Made by a program: the position numbers and the translations under genes. From an uncultured Gemmatimonadales bacterium (lineage in GTDB: Bacteria; Gemmatimonadota; Gemmatimonadetes; Gemmatimonadales; GWC2-71-9): a DNA stretch of 64,000 nt. Under the pieces are notes generated by a model, which was not told the origin of the DNA, made no database searches, and saw only the letters and a program-made list of their open reading frames with translations. This document shows positions 9,168-36,446 of this stretch, piece by piece. Within the stretch, counting starts at the first letter, position 1. Every line of letters begins with the position of its first letter. Location of the stretch: positions 128,001-192,000 of the forward strand of contig CAWCVB010000001.1 in assembly GCA_963798915.1 (NCBI GenBank), read 5' to 3'.

Positions 9168-12100
9168 TCATGGATTCCCGCGTTCGCGGGAATGACGATG
9201 AAACATGAACTTGGCCGCCGCGCCCGTCCTGACCGTCCTGCCCGCCCAGTTTCCCCTCACCATCGCCGGCACCACGAACATCGCCCCGATCGTGCCAGCG
9301 AGGGTGCCGCCCGCCGTGGCCAGGGCAATGGCGCCGAAGAGACTATCGGCGTCGGTGCCGATGGCAAGCGGCAGCAGACTCGCCAGCGTCGTCAGCGTCA
9401 CCATGATGATCATCCCCGCGCGATCTTCGGCTGCCTGCACCACCTGCGCAACGCTCAGCCCTGCCCGCCCAGTCCGCCCGGCCCGTCTTGTCTCCAGCGC
9501 CGCGTCCACCAGCAGAATTGATTGATTGACCGCGAGTCCCACTACCAGAATGACGCCCACTGCCGCCTCGCGGGTAAAGGCATTGCCCGTGAGCCAGAAT
9601 GCCGCCACCACTCCGCCCAGTGCCAGCGGCAAGCTGAGGAAGATCATGGCCGCCGCCCAGATCGAGTCAAAGACGAGCGCCACTGACAGAATCACCAGGA
9701 CCACACCGATGCCGAAGACCAGCCAGAGTCCCTTGGCGCTGTCATCGGGACTCCAGGCAAATTCGTCGTCGCCCACGGAATAGCCTGGCGGCACGGTAAT
9801 GCTCGCCATGAAGGCCTTGTGAGTGCGTTCCGCGAGCTTGGGCGGCCCCCGGAATTCATAGCTCACGATCCGAAGGTACTGCTGGTCCTCCCGGCTCACC
9901 GTGCCAAGCCCGGTGGCCTCATCCACGGCGGCAAGATCGCGGATGCGGACCGGTGCGTCTGATGGCGAGGGCACGATGGCCTGGCGCAAGTCGTCGAGCG
10001 AGCGCGTCTGGGCGCCGACGCGCTCCACGCTTACGGGCAGCTCCTCGTCGCCGATCTGCAGCTTCATGGCCGTGGGCCCGCCGGCCAGTTCGCGCGCCAC
10101 GGCGCCGGCAAAGTCGCCGGCCGTCACGCCATAGCGAGCCAGCGCCGCGCGATCGGGGTCCAGCACCACACTGACCGTGCGCTCGGAGCGCCAGCTCGCC
10201 GCGTTGATGTCCACGTTCCGGACCCGCGGGATCCGTTCCAGCCGCCCCTTGAGATCGAGTGCCAGCTGCTCCACACCGTCGAACGAGTAGCCCAGCAACT
10301 TGATCCGGTAGCTGGACATCCCACCGCCCCCACTGCCACCGTAATAGCCCGGCCCCTGCGGCGGTTGGACTGAGACCTGGGCCCCACCGATGAGGAGGGC
10401 GCGCTGGGTCAGCTTCTCGTAGAGCTCGTACGGAAGGGGACCGAGTCCTGCCTCGCGTTCAAAAACGACGGTCATCCGGGCGCCGTCCGGCGACCCCTGG
10501 CTCTGGACTTCATCGACGCCGGGCACGCCCACGACGATCGCCTCAAACTCGCGCATGCCGCGGTCCAGACTTTCGGGGTCTGACCCACGTGGAAAGCTGA
10601 GCCCGGCCGAAAGGGTCGTGCGCGCGTCAGGCCCAAAGCTCCAGCTCGACCTCGGCACCTTCTTGATGAAGCCCCACGTGAGCACCCCCACTGCGGCGGC
10701 CGCGAACGACAGGGTGACCCAGCGCCAGCGCACCAGGCCCCCGACCGCCTTTCCATATATATGGCGCAGCCGGGACGACCCTGACCGGTGGATCCCATGG
10801 CCGGCGCCCAGGGCCGGCACCATGATGAGCGCCGAGAGCACTGACCAGGCCAGCGCGAGGGCAAACGCGGCGGCAAAGGGGATGAAGGCCGCCCGTGCGT
10901 TCCCTTGCAGATAAAGAAACGGAAAGAGCACGACCGCCGTGGTGAGCGTGGCGCCCACGACGGCCGGCATGATCCGCCGGCCCGCTTCCGCTCGTCCGTC
11001 CGGCGTGTCCTCCGCGGTCCGCAGCCGTTCCACCACGACCAGGCCGTTGTCCACCAGAATGCCGATGCCCATGCCCAGGCCGGCCAGGGTGAGCAGGTTC
11101 GCAGGAATGTGAAGCAGGTACAGCCCGAGCGAGGTACCGGCGATCGCCACGGCAGCGCTGCCCATCACCAGCGCCACCGACTTGACATTGCGCAGCGCGA
11201 TGCCGAGCACCAGCAGCACGACGCCAAAGGCGATGGCGCCCCGCAGCATCAGCTCATTGAGCTGCCTGGCCAGCTCGACACTTTCGTCGTCCTGCAGCGT
11301 GAGGACCACGCCGGGCGGGAGGAGCCGGGTGACGTTGGCCACCTCCGCCTTGACCCGTGCGGCCGTCTTGATCGCGTCGGCACCGGGAAGGCGCGAGACC
11401 GAGAGCGCCACCGCCGTTTCGCCATTGAGACGATAGAATCGCCCGCGGTTATCCTCCGACGGGCGCACCGTCGCGAGCTCACCGAGTCGAAACACCCCGC
11501 CGCCCGGGCCGACAATGGGCAGCTTCTCGAGGTCGGACAGACTGCCGGGCTCATCGCGCACCACCACCGCGCTCTGGGTGGCACCTTGCTGTTCTTCGCC
11601 CAGCGCCTGCACCACGCGCGCGTTCTGCACCGCTGTCCGGATGGCGACCGGCGAGATCCCCAGCTGGCGCAGTCGCGAGCCATCGTATGACACCGTGACG
11701 CCCGGCGTGGCGCCACCGTAGGAATTGACACCGCTCACGCCCTCGACCGCCTGGAGCCGGGGTTTGGCGATATCGTTGCTGATCTTGAGCAATGCGCCCG
11801 GTGTGTAGGGCCCCGCCATGGTATACCGCAGCAGCGGCTGTTCCTGCAGATCGTCGGGAACGTAGTTCAAGACCTGGGGCGGCGAGACGCCGGGAGGGAA
11901 ATCACCGCGAATCGCTTCCAGGCGTTCGTGAATGGCGAGTCGCGCCATCTGCACGTCCGTTTCCGGCTCCAGCTCCACCGTGATCATGGCGGAGCCCTCG
12001 CTCGATTCGCTGCTGGTCTTCTTGACGCCGCGCACCGGCTGGATCGCTGCCTCGACGGGCGACGTAACGTAGGTCTCCATCAGCTCGGCGGAGACACCGG

Positions 12101-12248
12101 GCCAGCTGGAGGAGATCTGGAGACGTGGCAGCTCGACGGTGGTACGGGTGGCAAGCGGGAGACGGGTGAAGGCCACGCCGCCGGCCAGCAGCAGCGAGAA
12201 CGCGATGGCCCAGATAACGGCCGGGCGGTGCGCGGCCCAGCGAATCAC
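9168..12248 (-). CDS. RND efflux transporter permease (AcrB/MdtC-like)
   Basis: RND topology, NLLTLAGL...GILVDN; GTG start overlaps the upstream stop; C-terminus runs into a REP element. Confidence 0.9.
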   Translation of the reverse strand: MIRWAAHRPAVIWAIAFSLLLAGGVAFTRLPLATRTTVELPRLQISSSWPGVSAELMETYVTSPVEAAIQPVRGVKKTSSESSEGSAMITVELEPETDVQMARLAIHERLEAIRGDFPPGVSPPQVLNYVPDDLQEQPLLRYTMAGPYTPGALLKISNDIAKPRLQAVEGVSGVNSYGGATPGVTVSYDGSRLRQLGISPVAIRTAVQNARVVQALGEEQQGATQSAVVVRDEPGSLSDLEKLPIVGPGGGVFRLGELATVRPSEDNRGRFYRLNGETAVALSVSRLPGADAIKTAARVKAEVANVTRLLPPGVVLTLQDDESVELARQLNELMLRGAIAFGVVLLVLGIALRNVKSVALVMGSAAVAIAGTSLGLYLLHIPANLLTLAGLGMGIGILVDNGLVVVERLRTAEDTPDGRAEAGRRIMPAVVGATLTTAVVLFPFLYLQGNARAAFIPFAAAFALALAWSVLSALIMVPALGAGHGIHRSGSSRLRHIYGKAVGGLVRWRWVTLSFAAAAVGVLTWGFIKKVPRSSWSFGPDARTTLSAGLSFPRGSDPESLDRGMREFEAIVVGVPGVDEVQSQGSPDGARMTVVFEREAGLGPLPYELYEKLTQRALLIGGAQVSVQPPQGPGYYGGSGGGGMSSYRIKLLGYSFDGVEQLALDLKGRLERIPRVRNVDINAASWRSERTVSVVLDPDRAALARYGVTAGDFAGAVARELAGGPTAMKLQIGDEELPVSVERVGAQTRSLDDLRQAIVPSPSDAPVRIRDLAAVDEATGLGTVSREDQQYLRIVSYEFRGPPKLAERTHKAFMASITVPPGYSVGDDEFAWSPDDSAKGLWLVFGIGVVLVILSVALVFDSIWAAAMIFLSLPLALGGVVAAFWLTGNAFTREAAVGVILVVGLAVNQSILLVDAALETRRAGRTGRAGLSVAQVVQAAEDRAGMIIMVTLTTLASLLPLAIGTDADSLFGAIALATAGGTLAGTIGAMFVVPAMVRGNWAGRTVRTGAAAKFMFHRHSRERGNP

Positions 12249-15506: not shown

Positions 15507-16622
15507 CTAATCCTTCGCCTCCTCCACATCCCGCCGCATCTCCACCTTCACCGGTGCATCATGCGTGAGCGTGAGATGGCCCGAGATGAGCACCGTGTCG
15601 CCGGGCGCCACCGGAATCTCGTTGCTGGCGGAATCCGGCAGGATGACCGTCTCCATGCCGTTGGATCGGCCGGGATTCACATAGGTCCACTTGGCCCGGC
15701 CTTCTTTCACCACGAAGACCAGCGGGCGCCCATCGCGCTCGAGCACGGCGGACGCCGGGACAATGATCTCGTTGGGCAGCCGGCTGCTCTCCAGCCGCAC
15801 GTCGGCGTACATGCCGGGGCGGAGCGGACCGGGGTTGGGGAGACTCACGATCACCTTGCCGGCGCGGGTGGTGCTGTCCACCAGCGGGAGCACGGCGGCG
15901 ATGCGGCCTTCGATGACGCGATCAGGAACTGCCGCCGTCGTGATGCGGGCCCGGCCACCTTGTTTGACCAGCGGGAGATCGTGTTCCAACACACTGGCTT
16001 CGAGCCGCATGCTGGCGAGACTCACCACGGTGGCGAGTTCGTCGCCAGCGGAGACCCGGGTGCCGGCTGCCACCGGCACGGCGTCAATCACGCCGCTGAA
16101 TGGGGCGGTGACGACGGCGCGGTCGCGGTCCAGCTTGGCCTTTTCGAGCTGGACCCGGGCGGCGGCGAGGCCGGAACGCGCCAGCGCATTCTGGCGGCGC
16201 TCCTTGGTCGGCGCCTGTCCTGAGACAATCGAGTCGGGGACGATGTTGTCGGTGTACTGCACCTGGGCCTGCGCCACCGCCGCCTCGGCCGACTGCACGT
16301 CCAGATCGAACGGGCGCGGATCGTACCGCACCAGTGTCTGGCCCTTGGACACGTGCTGGCCCGACTTCACCAGCACATCGGCGATGGTGCCCGGCACCTC
16401 GGCGCGGAGCCTGGCCACGTCGGCGCGGACCTGGCCATTGGTCGCGACGGTGAGGACCAGGTCGCCCTTCCGGACCACATCCCCCACCACCGGGAGCGAG
16501 AGGGTGCTGGCGCTGCGGGTGGCGGTGGAATCCGCCGTCGGACCGTCGGCCGCGCCCTTCTTGCAGGCGGACAGCGGCAGCAGCAGCGCGGCGGAGAGGG
16601 GGAGCAGGTCCCGCAGGGTCAT
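15507..16622 (-). CDS. RND periplasmic adaptor (MFP) lipoprotein
   Basis: Lipobox LSAC, VTAPFSGVI, LRPGMYADV, IVPASAV. Confidence 0.9.
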   Translation of the reverse strand: MTLRDLLPLSAALLLPLSACKKGAADGPTADSTATRSASTLSLPVVGDVVRKGDLVLTVATNGQVRADVARLRAEVPGTIADVLVKSGQHVSKGQTLVRYDPRPFDLDVQSAEAAVAQAQVQYTDNIVPDSIVSGQAPTKERRQNALARSGLAAARVQLEKAKLDRDRAVVTAPFSGVIDAVPVAAGTRVSAGDELATVVSLASMRLEASVLEHDLPLVKQGGRARITTAAVPDRVIEGRIAAVLPLVDSTTRAGKVIVSLPNPGPLRPGMYADVRLESSRLPNEIIVPASAVLERDGRPLVFVVKEGRAKWTYVNPGRSNGMETVILPDSASNEIPVAPGDTVLISGHLTLTHDAPVKVEMRRDVEEAKD

Positions 16623-16697: not shown

Positions 16698-16860
16698 CCG
16701 AAACTCGCCCATTTGTCATTCCCGCGAACTTCCCGCTTTCGCGGGAATGACGGGGAATCCATGAGGGCTCACCCCAGGTGAGTCGCCCCGCCCGCAATGG
16801 TCGCGGGTCACTCGACCCGAGACCCGAGACCCGAGACCCGAGACCCGAGACCCGAGACCC
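16698..16860. repeat. Composite repeat: CCGAAACTCGCCCA, GTCA-type REP, then about six ACCCGAG units
   Basis: Directly visible; related to elements at 32855 and 40448. Confidence 0.8.
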
Positions 16861-16933
16861 CAAAAAGATGCGCCCAAGGCCTCAATGGTTGCTCAACGGG
16901 TGGCTCCGAGATACAGGGCACAATGGGACGCCA

Positions 16934-17650
16934 TCAGAAGCCTGTCAACTCTGGTTGACCCGCCCCCCCCCCGACGCCCCCCCGAGGGAAGCGCGCTTCG
17001 AGTCGGAGCGCCGCCTCCACCCGCCACTCCCAGCCGACGCGGTGGCTGAACTCGTGGAGGGATACATCCAGACAGGTGCGGACGCGATGCCGCAGAGTTC
17101 GCACATCCATGTCATAGCGCCCGGCCAATCCTTCCGCCGATTCATGCGCGGCCGTTTTTATTTTCGCGAGCTGAATCACCCATTCCCAGTGCCGGGGACT
17201 GAAGTGATTGCCCTGGCTGAAACGGCGACGCACTGAGCGGCGAGACAGCTCATTGCGTCCCTCCGCCACGAGTAGCCGAAGATGGGCCGCCAGCTTTTCC
17301 TGACCCGGGCGAGAGTCCACATAACGAAGCACTTCGGTAGCCGTCGGAGGCCGGCGGTTGCGGATGGCCGAGAGAGGACTCATGCCTGGTTTCAGAAAGA
17401 CGGGCACGCCGGGCAGCGACGAGACGGCGTCATACAGCTTGTCCAGATCCACTCTGGGGGTGTCGTCGGGCTGTTTCACAACGAGGCTGCACCAAGGAGC
17501 GGAGCCACGGACACCGAGCAGCGCCTGAATGCTCGCATGATCTGACCTGAACGGCCACAGTAGGATCGAGCCCAAGGGAGGGTCGGCGTGCCACGGCGAT
17601 TCGTCTAAGTAAGGCGGGACCAATAGCTTGCAGGCGAACAACGGGGGCAT
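16934..17650 (-). CDS. Putative transcriptional regulator with AraC-like double HTH
   Basis: GGAG RBS; C-terminal LSRRSVRRRF...SPRHW...SAEGLAGRYDMDVRTLRHRVR pattern. Confidence 0.5.
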   Translation of the reverse strand: MPPLFACKLLVPPYLDESPWHADPPLGSILLWPFRSDHASIQALLGVRGSAPWCSLVVKQPDDTPRVDLDKLYDAVSSLPGVPVFLKPGMSPLSAIRNRRPPTATEVLRYVDSRPGQEKLAAHLRLLVAEGRNELSRRSVRRRFSQGNHFSPRHWEWVIQLAKIKTAAHESAEGLAGRYDMDVRTLRHRVRTCLDVSLHEFSHRVGWEWRVEAALRLEARFPRGGVGGGAGQPELTGF

Positions 17651-18074: not shown

Positions 18075-19139
18075 ATGAACCTGTATTCCTCGGCTCACAT
18101 TGTGGCGCTCCTCCTTCCAGTATCGCTGGCTTGTGCCGGTGAACGGAGGCCCGCAGAGACTGCCGCTATCGATAGTCCAATGCAGCCACCAGCCTTCGCA
18201 CTCCACCCGATTGGCACCATCCAGGATGACTCCGCCGGTACTTGGAGAATGGGCAAGCCTCGGGCTGTTCAGATGGCCGGGCGCAACACTCTGCTAATCC
18301 TGGATTCAGACTGGAAGCACATTTTGGTCCACGATGCCGCGACGGGCCGTCTTCTCGGAATGATCGGAAACGGCTATGGCGCTGGCCCTGGCGAATTGGC
18401 CCTTCCCGTGGCAATGGTTGTCAGCGACACTCGCGTATACATCCTTGACTATGAACTTCGAAAGGTCAGTGTGTACAAGTTAACCGGTGCCTTTGTACGC
18501 GACATCTCCATCGCCTCCGTACAGGCTCGGGATTTCATTCTGGACCGTGACTCGCTCGTTGTCCGTCTCATGTCGCCCGATTCATCTGGTGCCCTAGCAC
18601 TTTTTGACCTGCGTGGCGATACAGCCATTAGATATGCACATCCCCTTGGCAGCCATGACCGGCAACTGGCTGAAGCGGGGGCTGGCGGCGTCCTTTTAGA
18701 GGCCAATGGTCAATGGCCTTCCGCATACATAAATGGCGACGGGAGCAGCATCACAAGTACTGATGGGTCGGCCCTGCACGGACCACTTGCAGCTACGACC
18801 AAGCTCCATACAACGACAAACGCTGGCGCAGCCTTACCATGGACGATTCCGGAACGCACAGCAATCAGTGCAACGAGGCTGACCAACGGCTGGCTTGTGA
18901 TCCTTGTGTCAGTAATACCTGTGAGCCGTTTGGTGAGCGCTGATAGCGTTCGCGCTGACTATTACCTCAGCGCCTATGATGCGACTTATCGTCCGCTTGG
19001 CTCTGCGATGCTCCGCTTGAATCGGAGTGACCTTCCAGTAGCCGTCGACGCTGGCGCGGCAGATAACGACCTCTATGTCAGCATCGTGGGACCATCGGGC
19101 CGTGTCGAGCACGTCAAGCTCGACCAGCACGACTACTAA
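18075..19139 (+). CDS. 6-bladed beta-propeller lipoprotein #1
   Basis: Lipobox SLAC; IGNGYGAGPGEL; VYILD; visibly lower GC. Confidence 0.78.
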   Translation: MNLYSSAHIVALLLPVSLACAGERRPAETAAIDSPMQPPAFALHPIGTIQDDSAGTWRMGKPRAVQMAGRNTLLILDSDWKHILVHDAATGRLLGMIGNGYGAGPGELALPVAMVVSDTRVYILDYELRKVSVYKLTGAFVRDISIASVQARDFILDRDSLVVRLMSPDSSGALALFDLRGDTAIRYAHPLGSHDRQLAEAGAGGVLLEANGQWPSAYINGDGSSITSTDGSALHGPLAATTKLHTTTNAGAALPWTIPERTAISATRLTNGWLVILVSVIPVSRLVSADSVRADYYLSAYDATYRPLGSAMLRLNRSDLPVAVDAGAADNDLYVSIVGPSGRVEHVKLDQHDY

Positions 19140-19155
19140 TGTGCATGGAGACCAT

Positions 19156-19689
19156 ATGACCACGGCCCTTAAGTTCGCCGTAATCATGGCGCTCGCCTTT
19201 GTTGGTTGGCTTCTCGGTCGACTGTCCCAAGGCCACACCGCTCGCGAGAGTCCATTGATGCTTGCGGTTGGCGAGACGATACCACCTGTTACGCTTAAAG
19301 GCGACGGCGGGCGCTCGATCGGAATTCGAAGCGCGATGGAGGAAGCGGACTCGAGTGTTTTGCTCATCGTATCATCGACGTGCAGCACCTGCATTGGTGA
19401 GCTTGCTTCATGGAATAGCTGGGCCCGTCAGAGCCCATCGCATCACATCACCGTTCTCGTTTATGCGCCGGACTCCTCATGGATAGGCCGTGCCCGAGCT
19501 ATGGTGAAGCCGGTATTCGATTTGAGACGGATCGCAGACAGGAAGACGGTGGACGCTCTCGGTGCGCACTACTCACCTACGGCATATGTCGTTAACCGAG
19601 ACGCGATCGTTCTTTCAGCGTCGCGAGGCATAGCCGCCACGGCCAGACTTAAGACTCGCCTCATGGGACCTGTCTCGAGGCAACCGTGA
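19156..19689 (+). CDS. Membrane-anchored thioredoxin-like (TlpA-type) CxxC protein
   Basis: N-terminal TM segment, GETIPPVTL, SSTCSTC, cis-Pro motif YSPTAYVVN; GGAG RBS. Confidence 0.75.
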   Translation: MTTALKFAVIMALAFVGWLLGRLSQGHTARESPLMLAVGETIPPVTLKGDGGRSIGIRSAMEEADSSVLLIVSSTCSTCIGELASWNSWARQSPSHHITVLVYAPDSSWIGRARAMVKPVFDLRRIADRKTVDALGAHYSPTAYVVNRDAIVLSASRGIAATARLKTRLMGPVSRQP

Positions 19690-20226: not shown

Positions 20227-20309
20227 GGAACCATGCCGGTTCTAGACGCATGTGATCGATTGCAAAAGTTAACCGCAGGGCAAGTTGACCCACGCAAGGG
20301 AACTCCTGC

Positions 20310-26101: not shown

Positions 26102-26689
26102 ATGGGTATGCCTGATACAGCTGGACGCGAGACGCGGGACGCGAGACGCTGGACCCGGGACGCGGTGCTCGCGCTCCCCGACGATGGCCGTCGCTACGAG
26201 CTTATTGACGGCGAACTGGTGGTGACGCCGGCGCCCGCTTGGCGGCACCAGGGAGCTGTCACCACGTTATGCGCCGTCCTGAAGCAGGCCTTGGATCGCG
26301 CTCCGGGCACCGTTGCGCGATTGCTGGTCTCCCCGGCGGACATCCAACTTGGTGAAGAAGAGATCCTTCAGCCGGATCTGTTCGTCTACACGATCGCGTC
26401 CGGACCGCGGGCGGAGGATTGGGGTGATATTTCGGGGCTCCTGCTCGTGATTGAAGTCCTCTCGCCCTCCACCGCGCGCTACGACCGGGGCCTGAAGCGG
26501 CTGCGATACCAGCGGGCCCGGGTGCCCGAATACTGGATCGTGGATCTCGACGGCCGCGTCGTGGAACGCTGGCGCCCGGATGATGCGCGGCCGGAGGTAC
26601 TGGCTGATCGGCTGCAGTGGTCGTCGGGCGATGGGGCTGAGGTGAACCTGGATCTGGAGGCGTTCTTCAGGGAAGTGGCGGGAACATGA
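26102..26689 (+). CDS. Uma2 family endonuclease-like protein, copy 2
   Basis: Same motifs; starts 835 bp after copy 1. Confidence 0.9.
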   Translation: MGMPDTAGRETRDARRWTRDAVLALPDDGRRYELIDGELVVTPAPAWRHQGAVTTLCAVLKQALDRAPGTVARLLVSPADIQLGEEEILQPDLFVYTIASGPRAEDWGDISGLLLVIEVLSPSTARYDRGLKRLRYQRARVPEYWIVDLDGRVVERWRPDDARPEVLADRLQWSSGDGAEVNLDLEAFFREVAGT

Positions 26690-26936
26690 AGGGCGGGCGG
26701 ACTAGGCGCATCTGACGTAGCACGTCATTGCGAGGAGGCGCCGACGGCGCCGACGAAGCAATGACGAATTGGCAAGCTGTCGCCGCAGGCGACGCCTGCC
26801 GAGCCACGGTCATCAGCCGCGGGAAACCCGGCACCAATCCGCCACCGGCCGCGTTTTCTCGATGACAGCGAGCAGTGCGGCGCTGGCGATCCTGAGGCAT
26901 GCCCCCTTGCCAACTCCCGCTGCCGAGCCGAGCCTT

Positions 26937-27521
26937 ATGGGTATGCCTGATACAGCTGGACGCGAGACGCGGGACGCGAGACGCTGGACCCGGGACGCGG
27001 TGCTCGCGCTCCCCGACGACGGCCGGCGCCGCGAACTTATTGACGGCGAACTGGTCGTGACGCCGTCGCCGTCCGATTCCCATCAGCGTGCTGTTGGGGA
27101 GCTGTATTTCCTGCTTCGGCTGGCGCTATCGCGAACCCCGGAAACTGCGGCGAGCCTTCTCTTCTCCCCAGCCGATATCAGCCTCGGCGAGGATGAAATC
27201 CTTCAGCCGGACCTCTTCATCTACCGAACCGCCAGCGGACGGATTCGGGAATGGAGCGACATAGCTTCGCTCCTGGTCGCCATCGAGATTCTCTCCCCCT
27301 CCACCGCGCGCTACGATCGCGGCCTCAAGCGGCTGCGCTACCAGCGGGCCCGGGTGCCCGAATACTGGATCGTGGATCTCGACGGCCGCGTCGTGGAACG
27401 CTGGCGCCCGGATGATGCGCGGCCGGAGGTACTGGCTGATCGGCTGCAGTGGTCGTCGGGCGATGGGGCTGAGGTGAACCTGGATCTGGAGGCGTTCTTC
27501 AGGGAAGTGGCGGGAGAGTAG
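26937..27521 (+). CDS. Uma2 family endonuclease-like protein, copy 3
   Basis: Same motifs; starts 835 bp after copy 2. Confidence 0.9.
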   Translation: MGMPDTAGRETRDARRWTRDAVLALPDDGRRRELIDGELVVTPSPSDSHQRAVGELYFLLRLALSRTPETAASLLFSPADISLGEDEILQPDLFIYRTASGRIREWSDIASLLVAIEILSPSTARYDRGLKRLRYQRARVPEYWIVDLDGRVVERWRPDDARPEVLADRLQWSSGDGAEVNLDLEAFFREVAGE

Positions 27522-27659: not shown

Positions 27660-28742
27660 CTAGCCGCCTAGCCGCCTAGCAAACCTCTCCAGCACCCGAA
27701 ACCCGTCCTCATCCTCGCCCACCGTATAGACCCACTTCGCAGTCACCGCCACGACTTGGCGATCACCCGGCACGACGACGGTCCGGGTTGACGGGCCCGA
27801 CAGGGGGAACAGCTCGAAACGCGAGACACTATCCCCCGCCTCGGTGCTGAGCTTCGCCCAGACTTCGCCGTCAGGTGCCGCCACGGCACCGTTCTGGAAC
27901 GGCCCCTTCGTGTCCGCCATCGGTCTGTAGATCGTGTCGCCCGGCGCTATGAATCGGCCGGTCAGCATCTGACGATCAGCCTCCGTTGCCTTGATCGGCA
28001 TCCACGCCCTCGGCGCGCCGGAAGTCCATGCACCTTCGGGGCTCCGCCGGTCCACCCGGTTCTGCTGGCCACGCAGGATCCAGATCGAGCCGTCCGGCAG
28101 CACGCCCCACTGATCCTGACTCTCGTACAACCGCCGCATCCGGCTCATGCCACCACCCTTGAGCCGAAGCACTTCCCAGCCGATGTCGTGGAGGCGCGCT
28201 ACCGTGTCCCGTCCGCTCTCGGGCGGATGCATCCGGTAAATCCACGTGGAGTCCTTGGGGCTGGTAGAATCAATCTCCTGACCCACCATCGTGAAGCCGG
28301 CGCTGGGCAGCTGTTCAGCGTAGAGATTGCCGAGCGTGTCCACGCGAAGTTCGAAGGAAACGATGTCGAGGATCGAGACCGCGGTGTCGAGAGTGCCGTC
28401 GGGATTCCAGAAGGTGATCCGGTGCTGCATGGGGTCGAGGACGCCGGGGTGGCCATGCCGCACCAGGCCAAGTGTCGGATTCCGATATTCGCCCGGCCCG
28501 TCCCCGTTGCGGCCGAGGGAATCCACCGTGCCGTCGTCAAGGTTGGCGAGGAGCACCGGGCCATCGTATTGAGGAATGACGATCCGGCCATCGGGCAGTT
28601 CGGCGATGGCACCGAAGTACCCAAGCTGGCCCAGCGTGGCGGAGGGCGAGCCGAGGCGGAGCACGTTCGCAGCGCCGGGAACATCCCTGGAGGCGCAACC
28701 AGCAACCAGTGCAAGCAGAGTCAGCATCCGAGCTTTCAGCAT
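27660..28742 (-). CDS. Beta-propeller lipoprotein #6
   Basis: VAGC lipobox; LGRNGDGPGEYR; DEDGF C-terminal motif. Confidence 0.8.
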   Translation of the reverse strand: MLKARMLTLLALVAGCASRDVPGAANVLRLGSPSATLGQLGYFGAIAELPDGRIVIPQYDGPVLLANLDDGTVDSLGRNGDGPGEYRNPTLGLVRHGHPGVLDPMQHRITFWNPDGTLDTAVSILDIVSFELRVDTLGNLYAEQLPSAGFTMVGQEIDSTSPKDSTWIYRMHPPESGRDTVARLHDIGWEVLRLKGGGMSRMRRLYESQDQWGVLPDGSIWILRGQQNRVDRRSPEGAWTSGAPRAWMPIKATEADRQMLTGRFIAPGDTIYRPMADTKGPFQNGAVAAPDGEVWAKLSTEAGDSVSRFELFPLSGPSTRTVVVPGDRQVVAVTAKWVYTVGEDEDGFRVLERFARRLGG

Positions 28743-28949: not shown

Positions 28950-30065
28950 TTACTGTACCACCTCGTACACCACAATCTTCTGCAGCCCTTCCTCATCCGC
29001 CTGCACCTCGTACAGCCGCCCATTGCGGATTACATATGGCACGTCAAGATCCCGATCGGGTGCTGGCATGGCGGCGATCTGCCGGCCAGCGGTGTCGTAC
29101 ACCGCAAGCATCATGGTGCCGTGCTGCATGCCTTCCACCCATGCTCTGCCGTGATCGTCAAATTCGACGGCGTTGAGCAACCAGACGGTCTCGGGCTTCC
29201 GGAGGCTCCCAGCATCGCAGTCCGCTCCCGCCCAATCCTTACGCCACTTCTGGTAATCGGCGAGATCCTGCGCCCACATCGAATCGGTCAGGGGAATCGG
29301 CGCCTGATCATAGGTGATGACGTGCACCGTCTGGCTATCGTCGCGCGTGAAGGTCAGCCGATACTGATCGGTGCGCCAGGTGACCAGATCACCATCAGGA
29401 GAGACCGCGGTCCGAAACTGAGGCGCATATCGGCTTGACTCAAACCCGATGCCTCGATCGCTCCGGCAGGTCAAGGTGAACGACTGGCCGATGTCATTCT
29501 CCGGTATGATGATGGTATCAGGGGCGACGCCGAGGCCAGCACGGATGAGGGACGCGTGGATGCGATCATCGCCCGTCACCTTCTGGTACGATGGCCGGAA
29601 GAACGCACTGGGCCCCGATTGATGGAGCCGGATATCGCCGCCGCTGATTCGCAGACTTGGCTCCGAGGCAACCCAGTTGCCCATACGGTCCACGAATTCC
29701 ACTCGCCCATTCTCGGGGTCATACACCGCCAGCGTATCACCAGCCCACGCCAGCGAGTAGCGATTGTTGAACTCGCCCGGTCCCGACCCCGCGCGTCCGA
29801 GTACCCGAAGCGGCTGACCTGCTGCATCGAAGACGTGGATTCCGCCCGCTCCATAGCCAGCGACGTAGACATTCCCATCACGATCGGCGGCGATGGACCG
29901 GACGGCCGCCGTCATCCCAGCCGCCTCGGGATCGATCATCGCCACGCGCCGGAGATTCCAGTGCGCCACGTCCGGATTACTGGCGCTACGGCTCGCCTCG
30001 CCATTGCAGCCCGCAGCAAGCGAGATCAGGATTGCCGTGCCGAACTTCCACCAACTCAAAGTCAT
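28950..30065 (-). CDS. 6-bladed beta-propeller lipoprotein #7
   Basis: AAGC lipobox; LGRAGSGPGEFN; DEEGLQKIVVY. Confidence 0.82.
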   Translation of the reverse strand: MTLSWWKFGTAILISLAAGCNGEASRSASNPDVAHWNLRRVAMIDPEAAGMTAAVRSIAADRDGNVYVAGYGAGGIHVFDAAGQPLRVLGRAGSGPGEFNNRYSLAWAGDTLAVYDPENGRVEFVDRMGNWVASEPSLRISGGDIRLHQSGPSAFFRPSYQKVTGDDRIHASLIRAGLGVAPDTIIIPENDIGQSFTLTCRSDRGIGFESSRYAPQFRTAVSPDGDLVTWRTDQYRLTFTRDDSQTVHVITYDQAPIPLTDSMWAQDLADYQKWRKDWAGADCDAGSLRKPETVWLLNAVEFDDHGRAWVEGMQHGTMMLAVYDTAGRQIAAMPAPDRDLDVPYVIRNGRLYEVQADEEGLQKIVVYEVVQ

Positions 30066-30270: not shown

Positions 30271-31449
30271 CTATTTCTTCACCAGCCGATACACCACGAA
30301 CGACGCGAGGCCGTCGCTGTCCGCCTCCCGGACCAGCACACGATCAGTACCCCGCCAGAGCACGTGCGCCGAGGAAGGCCATGGCGCGCGCACCGTCCCC
30401 TGCCAGATGCCTTCAGGCCTGAACACATCGTAGAATGATGCGGACGTGTCGGCGGATGCGGTCCGCACCCAGATACGGCCCGTGGCATCCAGATCCAGCG
30501 CCTGCATCGGCGGGCGCTCGGTGGGCATGTCATAGAGGTGGAAGTTGGCCTGGATCACGTCCGCCGGCAGGAATCGCGAGATCACCTCGGTGAGCTTGCC
30601 GAACCGCGCCGTGCGTTCTGATTCCGGTACCTTGATCGGCGCCCATGACCGGGTGAAAACCCGGGTCGTATCCGTGCCGTTGGTTTGGAGCGCAAGCGCA
30701 TAAATCGCCGACCATCCGCGCAGCAGCGCGCCCGATCCGGTGACTGTCACGAGATCCGCGGGGCCGCCGGGGATGCCGTAGGTCGCCCGACCGTTCGGTC
30801 GCTCCACCACCCACACTGCTGGCGCATGGCTTTGCTGCAACCAGAGGGTGTCAAGCAGAGTGCCCGTCGTGTCGTAGCGGAGCAGGGTCACCGCATGCTG
30901 GGGAGTCTCTGGTGCGGAAATGCGAAGGTAGAGCCGCGACTTGTCGTCCACTGAGATCGCGCCGGGCCCGTAGAAGCTCCCGTCGGTGACAAAACTGCTG
31001 ATGAACGAGCCGGCAGTATCGAAGATGCTGAGCCGCCTGAGCCGCGGGTCCTGCACATAGAGCCGGGCGCCACGGATCGCCAGAAGCGGCGAGCGATATT
31101 CGCCCGGCCCCGCGCCGTCGCGCCCGATGGTGCGTAGGTATGTGCCGGCGGAATCGAACACCTTGATGCGGGTGGGACTGTCATCCACGACGTAGGCGCG
31201 CCCGGCAGCATCCATCACCGCCGAGAAGACGGGATTGACCAATACCGTGGCGCCACTGTCGCCGGTCGGGAGGCGAGTCAGCTCTTCGAAGCGCCAGCCA
31301 CTGGAATCGGTCCAGCCGGAGGGCGTTAGGTTGTGGACGGCGACGATGCCGCCGGGGAGGGTATCAATGAGACTGGTCGCGAGACGCGAGTCGCGGGTGG
31401 TGCAGCCGGCGAGCAACGCCAGCAGGGCCAGCTTCGTCAGGCGCGGCAC
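30271..31449 (-). CDS. 6-bladed beta-propeller lipoprotein #8
   Basis: GTG start with GGGAG RBS; LAGC; IGRDGAGPGEYR; close paralog of #9. Confidence 0.82.
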   Translation of the reverse strand: MPRLTKLALLALLAGCTTRDSRLATSLIDTLPGGIVAVHNLTPSGWTDSSGWRFEELTRLPTGDSGATVLVNPVFSAVMDAAGRAYVVDDSPTRIKVFDSAGTYLRTIGRDGAGPGEYRSPLLAIRGARLYVQDPRLRRLSIFDTAGSFISSFVTDGSFYGPGAISVDDKSRLYLRISAPETPQHAVTLLRYDTTGTLLDTLWLQQSHAPAVWVVERPNGRATYGIPGGPADLVTVTGSGALLRGWSAIYALALQTNGTDTTRVFTRSWAPIKVPESERTARFGKLTEVISRFLPADVIQANFHLYDMPTERPPMQALDLDATGRIWVRTASADTSASFYDVFRPEGIWQGTVRAPWPSSAHVLWRGTDRVLVREADSDGLASFVVYRLVKK

Positions 31450-31518: not shown

Positions 31519-32751
31519 TCAATCCTGCTCGCCCTGCCCGCCTTGCCCGTCCTGCCCGTCCTGTATCACCCATCGCCGTACCTCCGGAAATCCAGTCTCG
31601 TCGGTGGTCGAGAGGTACAGGGTGCCGCCGCTGACAAGCAGCGGATCATATGGCGAGAGCTCGGCCGGCAGGTCCACGGCGCCCAGGTAGCGACCGGCCG
31701 GGCCGAACACGGCGAAGGTCGTATGACCGCCCTGGCTCAGACCCTGGGCCCAGGTGTTCCCGGCATCGTCAGTCATCAGCCGCAAGAAGCTCGGCTCGGT
31801 GGTCGGAACGTCGGCCATGTGAAAGGCATTCCGCAACGTGACCTCGTCGGCCTGGCCACCCTTGATCCGCTCGATCATCTGCTCCACGCGGGCGGTCCGG
31901 ACGCTGTCCGGAAGGGCACCTGGTGTCCAGGTCCGCCGCATGATCAACGTGGTATCATGCCCGGCGCCGGAGCGCATGATGGCGAACTCGGTGCTGGCAC
32001 CGAAGACGAGGCCGCTGTCCGGGCCAAAACCCTCCACCGTCTGTGGCGCGAAGGGGATGCTCACCGCCATGAACCTGCGGCCATTCTTCTCCACCGACCA
32101 GGACTGATCCTCGGTAAGCTGCGGGACCGAAATGGTGTCGAGCAATGTCCCGACCGTGTCGAAGCGGACCTTGTACATGGCCCGCTTGGGCACGCCTTCC
32201 GTCCCCGGACCCCGCACAACGATGAGCGGCAGGACCGCTCTCCAGGCAGCATCCAGTGCTACAGGGCCAAAGTAGTTGCCGACCGAGTGGAAGCTGCGGA
32301 TGAAGGTGCCGCTGGTATCGAATAGCGAGGTCCGCTGTAACTGCGGATCGTGTACCAGCAGCCGGTTGCCGCGGATGGCGATGTAGGCGCTCCGGAACTC
32401 CCCCGGGCCGTCACCTTCATGGCCAATGAGCCGGACGAAGGCGCCGGCGGAATCGAACACCTTGATGTTGACGGGCTTGTCGTCAGCCAGGTAGAGGCGA
32501 TGCTGGGCATCCACCGCGAGACTGCTGGGGTCGATGAGCTCCGCCACGGTGCCCTGCTCCGGCTGAATCGGCGGCAGGTCCGCCAGGCGCCAGCCGCTGG
32601 TGTCGGCCCAGGCTGTCGGACCGCTGCTGGTGACCCGCACGATGCCGCCCGGCAGCGTATCAATGACCGCGGTCGCGAGTCGGGAAGAAGAATCGGCACA
32701 TGCGGCAAGGAGAGCCAAAGCAAGCGGGAGCGTGCAATGTCGGGGACCCAT
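31519..32751 (-). CDS. 6-bladed beta-propeller lipoprotein #9
   Basis: LAAC; IDTLPGGIV; IGHEGDGPGEFR. Confidence 0.82.
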   Translation of the reverse strand: MGPRHCTLPLALALLAACADSSSRLATAVIDTLPGGIVRVTSSGPTAWADTSGWRLADLPPIQPEQGTVAELIDPSSLAVDAQHRLYLADDKPVNIKVFDSAGAFVRLIGHEGDGPGEFRSAYIAIRGNRLLVHDPQLQRTSLFDTSGTFIRSFHSVGNYFGPVALDAAWRAVLPLIVVRGPGTEGVPKRAMYKVRFDTVGTLLDTISVPQLTEDQSWSVEKNGRRFMAVSIPFAPQTVEGFGPDSGLVFGASTEFAIMRSGAGHDTTLIMRRTWTPGALPDSVRTARVEQMIERIKGGQADEVTLRNAFHMADVPTTEPSFLRLMTDDAGNTWAQGLSQGGHTTFAVFGPAGRYLGAVDLPAELSPYDPLLVSGGTLYLSTTDETGFPEVRRWVIQDGQDGQGGQGEQD

Positions 32752-32785: not shown

Positions 32786-32965
32786 GGCAGGATGGGCAGG
32801 ATGGGCAGGATGGGCAGGATGGGCAGGATGGGCAGGATGGGCAGGATGGGCAGGCCGAAGCTCGCCCAATCGTCACCCCGGTGCAAACCGGGGTCCGCGA
32901 GAGGCTCGTGCGGGGCGACTCAGTCGGGGTGAGCCCTCATGGATTTCGCCTTCCGGCGGAATGAC
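32786..32965. repeat. (GGCAGGATG)x7, CCGAAGCTCGCCCA, then a ~94 bp GTCA...TGAC element
   Basis: Element resembles the reverse complement of 40465-40559. Confidence 0.85.
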
Positions 32966-33024
32966 CAGCGAGCATCTCGATCCCCGGGCCGCCGAGTTGA
33001 CCGGACCGACCAGCGACGACCGAT

Positions 33025-34104
33025 CTACGTCTTTCGCCTTCCAACCTCCCTCCACTCACACCCTTCCGCGGAAATCAGGTACCGGTGCACCACCGTCCGC
33101 ACCGGATCACGATCGGCCTCCTGCTCGGTGACCAGCAGGGTATCGCCCTGGAAGCCGGTGAAGGGATGCCCGCCACCGTGCACCGGCACCGCACCATCCA
33201 CGCAGGCATGCTTCCGGTCCGCCGAGAGCAGCGAGAGCCAGGCCACGCTCTGGATGGCGTTGCCGTCCAGCACCTGGTCCATGTGCACCGCGGCGATCTG
33301 GCCGGTGGAGAGGCGATGCAGCTGGAACAGTCCGGACAGCGCCGAGAATCGCTCGGGAAACGGCGTCCCGGGAGCGGCCATCAGGGCGAGACCTCTGTCG
33401 GTGACGCCCTTGCGCCGCGCGACCGGCAGCTCGATCCGTTCGAGCGGTCGGCCGGCGGTGTCGAGCAGCACGATCTCGTTGCTGCCGGAGTAGCCGCCCA
33501 CAATGGTGTCGCCCCATACATCGAGGGCCACGATGGTGAAGATGCCACGGAGCGGCGGGCTCGCCTTGTAGGACGCAGGAAACGGGAAGAGCCTCCGGAA
33601 CGCGGTGTCCCCATCCCACCGGGCGATTCCGGTCTCGCTCCCCTGCTCCACGCCGCCGAACCAGACGGCGTCATTGCGCGCCACCACGTTGCGGAGGATG
33701 CCGGCATAGGGCACCTCGCCAATGCGCGCGCCGCTCGAGTCGAACAGGGTAAGCCGCCGAAGCTGGTCGTCGCCCACGGCAAATCGCCCCTCAGCCAGCG
33801 GCACCGCCTGGGTGGGCCCGCGAAACTCGCCCGGCCCGTCGCCCTTCCGGCCGACCACGTCGAGCCACTGCCCATCGGGAGCGAATCGCACCACCCGCGC
33901 CTGCGCCATGTCGGTTACGAGGTACCGGCCCCCGCCATCTTCCGCCACTCCACCCAGCTGGGCAACATATTCCGCTCCGCTTTCGCTCAGGACCACACTG
34001 TCAACCAGCGAAAGGGCGGGTCCGGTATCCTCGCGCGACCGGGGGGTGTCGCTCCCACACGCTGCAACGCCGAGCCCCAGGCTCACCGCGGCGATGAACC
34101 TCAT
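33025..34104 (-). CDS. 6-bladed beta-propeller lipoprotein #10
   Basis: VAAC; VGRKGDGPGEFR; ATGA-coupled to the upstream peptide gene. Confidence 0.82.
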   Translation of the reverse strand: MRFIAAVSLGLGVAACGSDTPRSREDTGPALSLVDSVVLSESGAEYVAQLGGVAEDGGGRYLVTDMAQARVVRFAPDGQWLDVVGRKGDGPGEFRGPTQAVPLAEGRFAVGDDQLRRLTLFDSSGARIGEVPYAGILRNVVARNDAVWFGGVEQGSETGIARWDGDTAFRRLFPFPASYKASPPLRGIFTIVALDVWGDTIVGGYSGSNEIVLLDTAGRPLERIELPVARRKGVTDRGLALMAAPGTPFPERFSALSGLFQLHRLSTGQIAAVHMDQVLDGNAIQSVAWLSLLSADRKHACVDGAVPVHGGGHPFTGFQGDTLLVTEQEADRDPVRTVVHRYLISAEGCEWREVGRRKT

Positions 34105-34289
34105 CGGGGCATCGGAACGGTCCAGCGCCAACAGGGACAGCGGTAGGTGTCGTTGTTGCAGTCATCCATGCAGTTACCGCTGATATCCCGCCAGTGATAC
34201 TTCCAGGGCACGGCGGTGGTGGCGCGCGCTCCGGACGCAAGCCCCGCAAGCATCAGGACCACGACGGACAGCACCTTGAGATTTGCCAT
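34101..34289 (-). CDS. Secreted cysteine-rich peptide B2 (4 Cys)
   Basis: GAGGAGG RBS; signal peptide; YHWRDISGNCMDDCNNDTYRCPCW; paralog of B1. Confidence 0.8.
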   Translation of the reverse strand: MANLKVLSVVVLMLAGLASGARATTAVPWKYHWRDISGNCMDDCNNDTYRCPCWRWTVPMPR

Positions 34290-34301
34290 GTCCACGCCTC
34301 C

Positions 34302-34514
34302 TCAAACATTGATCCAGAATCCGCCGCCCGATATCGGCCAGCAGGGACACTGGTAGGTGTGACCGCAACTCGACACGCATTTCCCGTCCAGATCCCGCCA
34401 TTGGTAGTAGCCCGCCTCGAACGGAAAGATGTAGATGGGCACGGCGTGGAGCGCCGGCGCGAGCACACTGATGAGCAGGCCCACCAGCAGGAGGCGACGA
34501 CCAAGATTTCGCAT
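34302..34514 (-). CDS. Secreted cysteine-rich peptide B1 (4 Cys)
   Basis: TAATG coupling to the thioredoxin-like gene; signal ending LHA; YQWRDLDGKCVSSCGHTYQCPCW. Confidence 0.8.
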   Translation of the reverse strand: MRNLGRRLLLVGLLISVLAPALHAVPIYIFPFEAGYYQWRDLDGKCVSSCGHTYQCPCWPISGGGFWINV

Positions 34515-34936
34515 TATTTCCTCGCTTGGGGAACGGTGAAGAGCTGCGCGGGACCGGCTTCGCCACTCCAGACCTCGCGGCCGGCGACGAGCAGCACGAC
34601 TCGCATGGTGCGGCCTTCGACCAGCCAGCCCGCCCCGGGCAGCAGGCCATCCACATCGGCACGTCCTGCCCGGAGCTGACGGCGCTCACCCTCGGTTGGC
34701 CTGGCGGTCAGGACCAGGCGAACCTGGCCGGGATGCTGCTTGCGCCAGGCTATCCAGTCGGGCAGGGTGCTGCCACAGGAGAAGCAGCGGGAGGGATTGT
34801 AGAACAGCACCGCAGTGCTTTCCGCGCCAGCCAGCTCGGCCACGCGCCGGCCATCGTCGAGGAGGAGGCGCCCCGCATCAGCGGGACGCCCGCAGGCGGC
34901 AGGGAGAACGGCGAGGAGGAAAAGCAGACGGCGCAT
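34514..34936 (-). CDS. Thioredoxin-like CxxC lipoprotein
   Basis: PAAC lipobox; beta-strand TAVLFY followed by RCFSC, helix, then VRLVL strand. Confidence 0.62.
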   Translation of the reverse strand: MRRLLFLLAVLPAACGRPADAGRLLLDDGRRVAELAGAESTAVLFYNPSRCFSCGSTLPDWIAWRKQHPGQVRLVLTARPTEGERRQLRAGRADVDGLLPGAGWLVEGRTMRVVLLVAGREVWSGEAGPAQLFTVPQARK

Positions 34937-34978
34937 GAGCCACGATAGCCATGCGCCGTCAACCGAATGTCAAAACGA

Positions 34979-36125
34979 TCAGGGTTTGGGGTAGCGCTGC
35001 AGGTACCACAATCCATCGTCATCGGTGCGCGCCGCGTAGATGCCGCGGACACCGACCGCGACCAGGCGGGTCCTGGCCGGGAGCCGGACCTGGCGAAGCA
35101 GGTCGCCGGTCGGGCCGAAGATATCGACCAGTTCGGCCGCGCCCGCTGGCTGGGCACGCTCAACCCAGACCTCGCCTTCCGGCGACGTGATGGCGGTATT
35201 GGGCATGAAGGGCGGCTTGGTCTCGGGCCAGTCCACCTTGGGCGGCTCCGGCGCCACGGGCGGGCGCCCGCCCGATGGACGACTGCCCCCTCCGTCCCTG
35301 GTGTATGCGAAGTGCGCCCCGGTTGTCCTTCTGGCGCTCCTCCAATTCCTTCTTGTCGGCGTCGGTCACGGGCACCGGCGTGTACGAGACCGCAGCACCC
35401 GTCCTCGGTGCGGGCGCGCTCCACTCGGTGTGATACCGGCCGGCGCGCACGAACGCGACCCGGCCGGCATTGGTCACCGCCCAGTCGTCGGACACCGGGA
35501 ATGGCTGCTGCCGCATCATGACCGACCGGTTGCCCGCCGAGCCGGCGGTCGAGACGGCGACGGCAGGGAGCTTTACTTTGCCGATCTCGGTCAGCTGGTC
35601 GGCCTTGCGATCCCAGCGCAGCACCGGCGCGGAATCCGGCAGCGAGCGCGGATCTCCGGGCCCGTCGGCGCCAAAACCCGACCCCTGCACGTAGAGTCGG
35701 CCCATGGCGTCCGCGCCCTTGAAACGTCCGAACCCGGAAAGCCGGTCGGGAAAGGCCACCGTCCCGGTGGGGGTCCCGTCCGGCAAGATCACCAGGAAGC
35801 GGCTCTGGGCCGGGTCCACCACCCAGGTCGTGTCACCAGGCAGGGGCATCAGGCCCATCGGGAAGCCAAATTCCCTGGGCCCCTGTCCTTCCCGCCCGAT
35901 CGCCTTGGCATCGTCGGCCTTGAGGTCAACCAGCGACACGGTCCGCGCAAACACGTCGGCCACCACCAGCCGCCCATCGCTCAGCTCACGGACTGCCGTG
36001 ACCTGGTCGAACGGTTCCGACAACTCGGCATCAGGCCTGGAAAGCTGAACGATGGGAACCTGCTGCGCGCCCGCAGGCAGGACGACGGCAAGGATCAGGC
36101 TGGCCAGCGGGAGGGCACTGCGCAT
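34979..36125 (-). pseudogene. Secreted beta-propeller protein #11 with a +1 frameshift near 35304 (pseudogene or sequencing error)
   Basis: IGREGQGPREF in the N-terminal frame; C-terminal blade (SPEGEVWV...DDDGLWYLQRY) in another frame; removing one base joins them. Confidence 0.7.
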
Positions 36126-36257
36126 CGGCTCGGCTCGCGAAGGAGGTCGGTCAGATGATGCGCGAAGCGGGTCGAGGGTTGCGCGTTGGGAAAAAGGGGC
36201 TCGGGCTTGGGGGTTCGGGCGCACAGCGCACAGCGCACAGCGCACAGCGCACGGCGC

Positions 36258-36446
36258 CTAACGCTTGACGGCAGGCCGGCGAACCTGGCTCTCGAGTCCG
36301 ACCTCGGGCCGGATCACCAGAAAGACGGTCTTCTCGCCCACACCCACCACCGGCTTGCGCTCGGGCAGTGGAACTTCTCCGATGGGCCGGCCGCGGTCGA
36401 GGATCACGTAATGTCCTGGAGTCTTTTCAATCATTGGCGGTGTCAT
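36258..36446 (-). CDS. Small protein resembling a propeller C-terminal blade
   Basis: YVILDRGRPIGEVPLPERKPVVGVGEKTVFLV resembles the end of #11 (VDIFGPTGDLLRQVRLPARTRLVAVG). Confidence 0.45.
   Translation of the reverse strand: MTPPMIEKTPGHYVILDRGRPIGEVPLPERKPVVGVGEKTVFLVIRPEVGLESQVRRPAVKR

Follow-up and report, generated by a model that had tools for sequence, protein, structure and literature searches.

The region analysed here lies in a 64,000-nucleotide stretch of DNA (positions 128001-192000 of contig C1, referred to below as the window) from the 3.3 Mb, 85% complete genome of an uncultured Gemmatimonadales bacterium. Between window positions 9168 and 36446, this stretch contains genes for a membrane fusion protein (MFP) and two permeases of the resistance-nodulation-division (RND) family, a helix-turn-helix (HTH) regulator, 11 beta-propeller genes, and two cassettes of small genes (Table 1). 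In cassette 1 (19156-21350, plus strand), the gene for a CxxC protein is followed by those for an eight-cysteine peptide and a propeller, with another propeller gene and the divergent HTH gene upstream. In cassette 2 (34936-33025, minus strand), a gene for a CxxC lipoprotein precedes those for two paralogous four-cysteine peptides and a propeller. All elements listed in the first-pass annotation, which was made from the sequence alone, were found where it had placed them. The absence of radical SAM, lanthipeptide, YcaO, and C39 genes that it reported was upheld, with no match to any of these families among the 41 window proteins scanned. We conclude that the genes are real and form a modular system, which is co-inherited and under purifying selection, and whose peptides carry paired cysteines; its function we infer from the sequences.

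Table 1. Genes of the pump, propeller, and peptide locus, in window coordinates.
Feature	Position	Strand	Basis
RND permease A (RND-A), 1026 aa	9168-12248	-	family scan, alignment of orthologs
RND permease B (RND-B), 1027 aa	12245-15328	-	family scan, alignment of orthologs
MFP, lipoprotein	15507-16622	-	family scans
HTH regulator, divergent from cassette 1	16934-17650	-	
Cassette-type propeller lipoprotein, DUF5128 match, GC content at third codon positions (GC3) 0.58	18075-19139	+	
Membrane-anchored TlpA/redoxin-like CxxC protein, cassette 1, GC3 0.61	19156-19689	+	
Peptide 1: Sec signal and 8-Cys acidic mature region, 81 aa	19981-20226	+	
Cassette-type propeller lipoprotein, after peptide 1	20310-21350	+	
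Three array propellers, outside cassette-type branch	21443-22543, 22614-23819, 23816-25030	+	
Three tandem Uma2 genes, 835-nt period, passengers between arrays	25330-27521	+	
Four array propellers	27660-28742, 28950-30065, 30271-31449, 31519-32751	-	
Cassette-type propeller lipoprotein, six-bladed NHL-type model	33025-34104	-	
Peptide B, 62 aa, 4 Cys	34101-34289	-	
Peptide A, 70 aa, 4 Cys, same family as peptide B	34302-34514	-	
Thioredoxin-fold CxxC lipoprotein, ResA/StoA/TlpA-like, cassette 2	34514-34936	-	
Array propeller, cleavable non-lipoprotein signal peptide, frameshifted	34979-36125	-	

Each of the three peptide genes is preceded by a purine-rich ribosome-binding site, and the products begin with hydrophobic signals that end in A-x-A-type sites and contain no double-glycine leader, in agreement with the Sec export predicted for them earlier. 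Peptides A and B share the motif W-x-D-x-x-G-x-C...C-x-C with a family of 28 sequences, in which only Met1 and the four cysteines are invariant. When peptide B was compared with its two nearest orthologs, the proportion of nonsynonymous differences (pN) was 0.19-0.24, versus 0.53-0.67 for synonymous differences (pS), and pN was below pS in all eight comparisons of peptides A and B with four relatives each. On these codon comparisons, the peptides are under purifying selection. A hydrophobic C-terminal tail of the P-x-I-I-V type is present in about 8 of the 28 family members (loci L060, L062, L066, L067, L068, L073, L085, and L108) and is possibly a beta-strand docking or export signal. Such a tail recalls a TonB box, an idea that was left unsupported by a genome motif scan, which gave one plausible receptor among 18 matches.

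To describe the cysteine content, 46 distinct peptides adjoining propellers or thioredoxins were collected with a filter of at least three cysteines, near-identical relatives being kept. Four cysteines were found in 23 peptides, six in 16, eight in two, and five in five, so that the count was even in 41 of the 46, which is consistent with the disulfide bonding proposed in the first-pass annotation. Four of the five odd-numbered peptides are the two tandem partners in each of the close genomes G003 and G007 (L049:15108-15530 and L072:1067-1493), which were treated as one evolutionary event; in the fifth, the count includes a signal-peptide cysteine. Because each tandem partner has one extra cysteine, the sequences suggest that the partners form an interchain disulfide and hence a heterodimer. 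A net charge of +3 or higher was found in none of the 46 peptides; 43 were neutral or acidic, and the median charge was -2. The bacteriocin analogy drawn earlier thus appears weak: a neighbouring oxidoreductase gene speaks for it, while the charge and the lack of a double-glycine leader and of a C39 transporter speak against it. The NVEALA model (PF14055) gave no match in the three peptides or in the genome, and no match in the control genomes either. Longer secreted proteins with an N-terminal cysteine-rich module also adjoin propellers (G000:C2:415675-416205, which is L003, and L200 and L201), and may possibly be an extended class of cargo.

The trio of CxxC protein, peptide, and propeller was found twice more in the genome. 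On contig C4, a regulator, two six-cysteine peptides, a propeller, and a CxxC protein lie together, and this CxxC protein is the only significant paralog of the second thioredoxin of the window. Contig C5 contains genes for a four-cysteine peptide, a CxxT protein, and a propeller, and on contig C2 a propeller is followed by a 176-aa secreted cysteine-rich protein. Small open reading frames (ORFs) with a strict signal peptide and at least four cysteines were enriched within 1 kb of a same-strand propeller (5 of 7 versus 52 of 3509 intergenic ones, p 1e-8), with a filter that was defined after the peptides had been seen, that misses peptide 1, and that gives only 3 of 5 outside the window.

A profile of the second thioredoxin was used to survey 401 genomes of the order, and matched 19 of them. 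Outside the source genome, 27 loci were picked in this way; a propeller was found within 1.5 kb in 25 and a called peptide in 19, the two loci without a propeller both being at contig ends. Recurrence in relatives, with a dedicated thioredoxin-fold partner, is thereby supported. The peptide precedes the propeller in all 18 complete loci. The thioredoxin-peptide-propeller order of the two window cassettes recurs in eight loci and is not fixed in relatives (peptide-thioredoxin-propeller in six, peptide-propeller-thioredoxin in three, one mixed, and one truncated). When 33 loci were picked with the cassette-type propeller instead, a thioredoxin was present in 13 and a peptide in 12, and a metagenome scan with the same propeller yielded four loci, all four with both thioredoxin and peptide.

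The CxxC motif is CSTC in the first and CFSC in the second CxxC protein. Neither protein has a significant Pfam or NCBIfam match; the first is similar to Redoxin/TlpA clusters (atlas score 0.96), and the predicted fold of the second is like that of ResA, StoA, and TlpA (predicted local distance difference test score, pLDDT, 88; Foldseek E 2e-4). Both are therefore thioredoxin-fold proteins of the TlpA/ResA/StoA type, and, as had been noted, they look unrelated to each other (30% identity over 56 aa, E 0.06). The family of the second protein is unnamed and comprises at least 513 clusters at 50% identity; its CxxC lies at the start of the first helix, and the two cysteines are kept in 93% and 100% of 150 members. 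No thioredoxin-propeller fusion was present among the best 150 matches of the family, all of which are 281 aa or shorter. Dedicated oxidative folding of the peptides by the CxxC protein is probable. The regulator, labelled AraC-like in the first-pass annotation, is an HTH protein whose AraC assignment is weak (HTH_18 E 0.007, below the cut-off). Its sole paralog in the genome (E 1e-8) lies divergent from the C4 cassette. As a marker of cassettes the regulator was rejected, since a cassette gene lay within 1.5 kb in 9 of 24 regulator loci, which makes it enriched there rather than dedicated.

The 11 propeller genes with the GP-E motif between 18075 and 36125 are mostly less than 35% identical to each other. 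A twelfth (42776-43807, plus strand) is related to the lineage of propellers 27660 and 35160, and the genome contains 24 near-full-length propellers in all. PF17170 (DUF5128) matched four of the 11 above the cut-off and three more below it. The model of propeller 33025 has a pLDDT of 89, and among bacterial structures it is closest to DUF4221 and BF0058, neither of which has an assigned function. Cys301 and Cys349 of this propeller are conserved in 100% and 96% of 45 non-redundant subfamily members, and this cysteine pair, R231, S257, D276, and D303 are invariant in cassette-type propellers. Across 104 non-redundant propellers, only structural Gly, Asp, and Arg residues and the GP-E motif are conserved, with no shared catalytic residue set. 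The presumed top-face loops, assigned from secondary structure only, have a mean conservation of 0.36, versus 0.45 for the bottom loops. A complex of peptide B with propeller 33025, predicted with alignments, had a score of 0.01, against a mark of 0.32, in a run whose controls were unfolded and in which the peptide fold was uncertain, so that the score counts neither for nor against binding. In four genomes of family f7 (G439, G457, G488, and G473), the propeller profile returned 360-451 candidates per genome, versus 95 here, figures that are not copy numbers but hint at very large expansions of the family.

Trees were built from 130 propellers (FastTree, with cassette-type sequences over-sampled by design) and from the 24 of the source genome. 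In both trees, the cassette propellers of contigs C4 and C5 fall together with 18075, 20310, and 33025. In the own-genome tree, five of six cassette propellers fall in an eight-member branch with moderate support (90/85) that contains none of the eight array propellers. A single clade of seven cassette-type propellers was neither rejected nor demonstrated (approximately unbiased test, p-AU 0.10). Array propellers 35160, 30271, 31519, 27660, and 28950 have 38-73% counterparts at pump loci of other genomes. The earlier suggestion that surplus propellers form an orphan library for foreign peptides was not supported: because the array genes lie in other lineages, and five of them have such counterparts, the array looks, from its sequences, more like a conserved component of the platform than like a set of captured immunity genes. 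Solo cassette-type propellers, including one on contig C3, may have a listener or immunity role. Comparison with an intact ortholog places a frameshift, due to either mutation or assembly error, between about 35297 and 35237 in the last array propeller (34979-36125), whose lineage recurs at many pump loci. No sequencing run was listed for 33000-36200. A 62-aa ORF at 36258-36446 (minus strand), without Pfam or NCBIfam match, resembles the last blade of a propeller by eye and is possibly a propeller remnant.

The family scan confirmed the MFP and two permeases of the AcrB family. Equivalents of K940, R971, and T978 (AcrB numbering) are missing from RND-A, and most residues of the proton-relay type have been lost in its near clade; the Asp of transmembrane segment 4 (TM4) is kept in the window copy and replaced by Gln in at least 37 of 46 near orthologs. 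In RND-B, the TM4 Asp is kept in 39 of 39 orthologs, and equivalents of R971 and T978 and a conserved TM10 acid and Lys are present. From these alignments, RND-A is probably a passive subunit, and RND-B is likely proton-coupled. The gene for a TolC-type channel lies outside the window, while many relatives have it within the pump operon. The best match to these operon TolC proteins (C1:30668-31984, 42-47%) is a candidate for the outer-membrane channel of the pump.

RND-A orthologs were found in 113 of 301 sampled Gemmatimonadota genomes, nearly always in single copy, and both the window permease and a window propeller have named homologs in Gemmatimonadales and other Gemmatimonadota. In the order sample, which consisted of two large families (194 genomes; propeller-rich meaning at least three propeller matches), RND-A and propellers occurred together in 61 genomes and neither in 115, with RND-A only in 10 and propellers only in eight, as counted over related, non-independent genomes with two to six candidates scored per genome in each search. 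Re-search yielded pump homologs in seven of the eight propeller-only genomes, and at least four pump-only genomes (G016, G115, G160, and G252) have propellers, so that most of the discordance came from missed detection. In other families, RND-A was present in 39 of 69 propeller-rich genomes, and 28 of the remaining 30 had an RND-B match of 37-49%, so that RND-A or RND-B was matched in 67 of 69, several RND-B matches covering the N-terminal half only; none of nine propeller-poor controls had an RND-B match above 31%. The contrast was also seen within several genera (g13, g18, and g46). RND-A was found in 38 of 40 genomes with a cassette thioredoxin or cassette-type propeller, versus 71 of 194 (37%) in the background. 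The tie between the pump and the system, which had first been suggested by adjacency, is upheld by these counts.

Gene order gave a similar picture. In genome G003, a propeller, a thioredoxin, two peptides, four more propellers, the MFP, and both permeases are all encoded on one strand, and in relatives, counterparts of the four minus-strand array propellers are found directly upstream of the MFP and RND genes. The block of about 16.9-27.5 kb in the window seems to interrupt the operon that is intact in G003. The first three genes of cassette 1 have a GC3 of 0.58-0.61 versus about 0.8 for the pump genes; the GC3 of cassette 2 is host-like. In a sister clade with the operon order MFP-TolC-RND-B-RND-A, propeller genes are interleaved between pump genes, and a propeller was adjacent in 4 of 16 loci of one set and 4 of 4 of another. 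Among 14 informative, unselected pump loci from GTDB, propellers were found in 11 and a called peptide in seven. In G138, G089, G206, G116, and G136, whose loci were chosen partly because such matches were near, the pump is preceded by cartridges of regulator, peptide, and propeller. A functional link between propellers and pump is very probable. The plasmid collection gave no match to propeller 23816 or to RND-A (E limit 1e-60 for the latter).

We consider it most plausible, with a probability of roughly 0.4 and on sequence grounds, that the propellers act in the periplasm as adaptors or chaperones and deliver folded peptides to a dedicated RND-MFP-TolC pump. The platform would consist of the single-copy heteromeric RND pair, the MFP, a TolC-type channel (here probably supplied in trans), and the conserved array propellers; a cartridge would consist of a regulator, one or more Sec-signal peptides, a dedicated thiol-disulfide protein of the TlpA/ResA type, and a cassette-type propeller. 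The peptide would pass the inner membrane via Sec, and the CxxC protein would then make or shuffle its disulfides, and possibly the conserved disulfide of the propeller too. The folded 4-6 kDa peptide would be held in the periplasm by the propeller and passed to the pump, much as CusF serves CusCBA. Subunit B would provide proton coupling, subunit A would aid cargo recognition, and the peptide would exit via TolC. Exported peptides are more likely to be specific ligands (signals, inhibitors, or receptor-targeted toxins) than membrane-lytic bacteriocins. A more tentative extension is programmable RND secretion, in which swappable propeller adaptors (about 24 here), some of them in cartridges, would set the specificity of the pump, and hundreds of mini-proteins would be exported across the phylum, perhaps along with clearance of foreign peptides.

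Several observations weigh against the adaptor model. No thioredoxin or peptide lay within 1.5 kb in 20 of the 33 cassette-type propeller loci, and 12 of 16 pump loci in the sister clade and 3 of 14 in the near clade had no adjacent propeller. At several pump loci with six to eight propellers, no peptide was called, and a search without a positive control did not find the peptide A/B family in five pump-positive genomes; the pump may therefore have other tasks besides peptide export. With solo cassette-type genes intermixed, the cassette label shows no significant clustering in the own-genome tree (five changes; 201 of 500 shuffles gave as few). A probable cis-Pro column with Pro in 87% of the second thioredoxin family is without Pro in the window copy and its nearest orthologs; because of this, and because ResA, StoA, and TlpA are usually reductases, the CxxC protein should be regarded as a putative oxidase at most. 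A solo propeller without a pump ortholog was found in genome G175 (93% complete), and a full cassette with an RND-B match of only 35% in genome G132 (98% complete); the non-independence of the co-occurrence counts belongs here as well.

The adaptor model competes with four others. The peptides could be toxins or signals with the adjacent propeller as cognate immunity protein or receptor, and the surplus propellers as a library against foreign peptides. The propeller does lie directly downstream of the peptide, solo cassette-type propellers are common, the top-face loops are the variable ones, and cassette 1 looks recently acquired by its GC3; in the two nearest orthologous cassettes, moreover, divergence is faster in the peptides than in their partners (pN 0.19-0.36 versus 0.13-0.15). 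We nevertheless regard this explanation as unlikely: the eight array propellers stand outside the cassette-type branch, the peptides are neutral or acidic and never have pN above pS, immunity genes need not track a pump across the phylum, and the cassette regulator has, as read by eye, no obvious membrane sensor segment. Rather unlikely, too, is that the peptide is a disulfide-rich subunit or lid that stays on the propeller in a two-chain envelope binding protein or enzyme, with the pump handling acylated propellers or a product. MauA/MauB with MauD have such an architecture, the thioredoxin-propeller cleft of NHLRC2 offers an alternative parallel, and the fold matches include six-bladed propellers that bind small cysteine-rich modules (nidogen/laminin and LRP6/DKK1, Z about 17); the pump also tracks the propeller family rather than the peptides, and cassette-type propellers have the invariant cysteine pair and the four other invariant residues named above. 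Against this stand the lack of an invariant Trp in the peptide family, of a MauG/MauE-type gene in the window family scan, and of a fusion among the best 150 thioredoxin-family matches. The TolC bore is too narrow for a folded 40 kDa propeller, and one or two peptides per propeller in variable gene order suit cargo better than a fixed subunit.

Metal or redox detoxification, in which acidic cysteine-rich peptides kept reduced by a TlpA-type reductase would bind periplasmic metal and be expelled, appears improbable. Although the peptides are acidic, the CxxC protein has a reductase-type fold, and the permeases match CusA/CzcA models below the cut-off, the paired cysteine numbers and conserved spacing indicate disulfides, the extreme diversity of the peptides is unexpected in a metal sink, and the closest solved relative of RND-A is MdtB rather than CusA. 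That there is no system at all, only an insertion hotspot where unrelated small genes came to lie beside an ordinary efflux pump and the members of an expanded lipoprotein family, is highly improbable: Uma2 genes, intergenic repeats, and the low-GC insert do break up the locus, but the trio is found elsewhere in this genome, at unlinked sites, as well as in 18 other genomes, and propellers and cassettes co-occur with the pump at the genome level. This explanation is largely refuted.

When compared with known systems, the locus resembled several, and its architecture fell outside each of those tested. The pump is like MdtABC in having an MFP and two different permeases with an apparent proton-relay asymmetry, such as that between MdtB and MdtC, and MdtB (PDB 9lyq, E 3e-60) is the best solved match of RND-A; it differs in being about 25-30% identical to generic RND proteins and in forming a separate single-copy clade tied to propellers. 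With an MFP and two permeases here, and an outer-membrane factor in the operons of relatives, it is a heteromeric RND tripartite pump. The mauBEDA genes of methylamine dehydrogenase encode a cysteine-rich small chain, a propeller chain, and a thioredoxin-like maturation factor; mau clusters have two invariant Trp residues in the small chain, from which tryptophan tryptophylquinone is formed, and MauG and MauE. No invariant Trp pair and no MauG or MauE were seen here, and the peptides are 40-55 residues long and highly variable. Bacteroidota propeller lipoproteins DUF5128, DUF4221, and BF0058 (PF17170; PDB 3s9j and 4raa) share the fold and the Pfam match with those described here (3s9j against the 33025 model: Z 21.6, root-mean-square deviation 3.8, 313 residues aligned); they are only 10-12% identical, and the peptides here have no match to NVEALA. 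In NHLRC2 and SOQ1, whose chains match at Z of about 17.8, a thioredoxin-like domain is fused to a six-bladed NHL propeller, with the motif CC(I/V)NC and bacterial homologs without conserved neighbours (PMC6107167); here, the genes are separate, the motif is CxxC, and the peptide and pump context is conserved.

According to PMC5985334, E. coli STII, a small ribosomal Sec-signal peptide of matching size, passes through Sec, is folded in the periplasm by DsbA with two disulfides, and is expelled by the tripartite pump MacAB-TolC. That route uses a housekeeping DsbA and an ATP-binding cassette (ABC)-type pump, whereas a cassette-specific oxidoreductase, a heteromeric RND pair, and a propeller family are found here. 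Bacteroidetocins (class IIf) are likewise four-cysteine peptides encoded beside a thiol oxidoreductase gene, and are described in PMC6671954 with a double-glycine leader, a peptidase-ABC transporter, and a protein with five transmembrane segments. The locus differs in its Sec signals, RND pair, and propellers, the word propeller occurring 0 times in the main text of PMC6671954, and no C39 or ABC family was matched among the 41 window proteins. Nor did Pfam and NCBIfam scans of the locus proteins reveal a modifying enzyme, as would be expected of a modified ribosomal peptide. No publication describing a pump-propeller-peptide system was found in a search outside which supplementary tables and most subscription journals lay. 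We conclude that this is a real, undescribed modular system with a new architecture, whose function we infer.

If the adaptor model is true, it would provide a function for a very large uncharacterised lipoprotein family, the DUF5128-type propellers, and for the pump clade. RND specificity set by external adaptors would be a new mode, and the peptides would represent a reservoir of disulfide-rich mini-proteins invisible to modifying-enzyme mining, given the number of clusters in one thioredoxin family alone. With four genes in a cartridge and three in the pump, the unit is of a directly testable size. The present analysis adds the phylum-wide pump-propeller coupling, the data on cysteine parity and peptide charge, and the distinction between array and cassette propellers.

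The surroundings of the locus contain further features. An extracytoplasmic function (ECF) sigma factor, a putative anti-sigma factor, and two HEAT-repeat proteins are encoded at 36814-40387 (plus strand), divergent from the propeller operon; this region is a candidate regulator of the platform, and in G003 (L049), G033 (L053), and L134 the array likewise has an ECF sigma gene with an anti-sigma-like gene at its flank. Downstream of RND-A, a 295-aa coiled-coil lipoprotein (8033-8920, minus strand) has no family above the cut-off and has counterparts downstream of the pump in L050, L122, L123, and L134. Two tandem M14 zinc carboxypeptidases (4165-7658, minus strand) lie downstream of the pump operon. 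Uma2 genes also adjoin propellers on contig C3, in L092, and in L186. Intergenic arrays of a 9-mer occur at 9043-9121, 22492-22579, 32788-32857, and 36502-36580 (148 genome matches with an 18-nt probe at up to two mismatches), and a 7-mer array lies at 16814-16862. A 39-nt element is present in inverted orientation at 16756-16794 and 32907-32945, 16 kb apart, and its first 20 nt have 20 matches in the genome.

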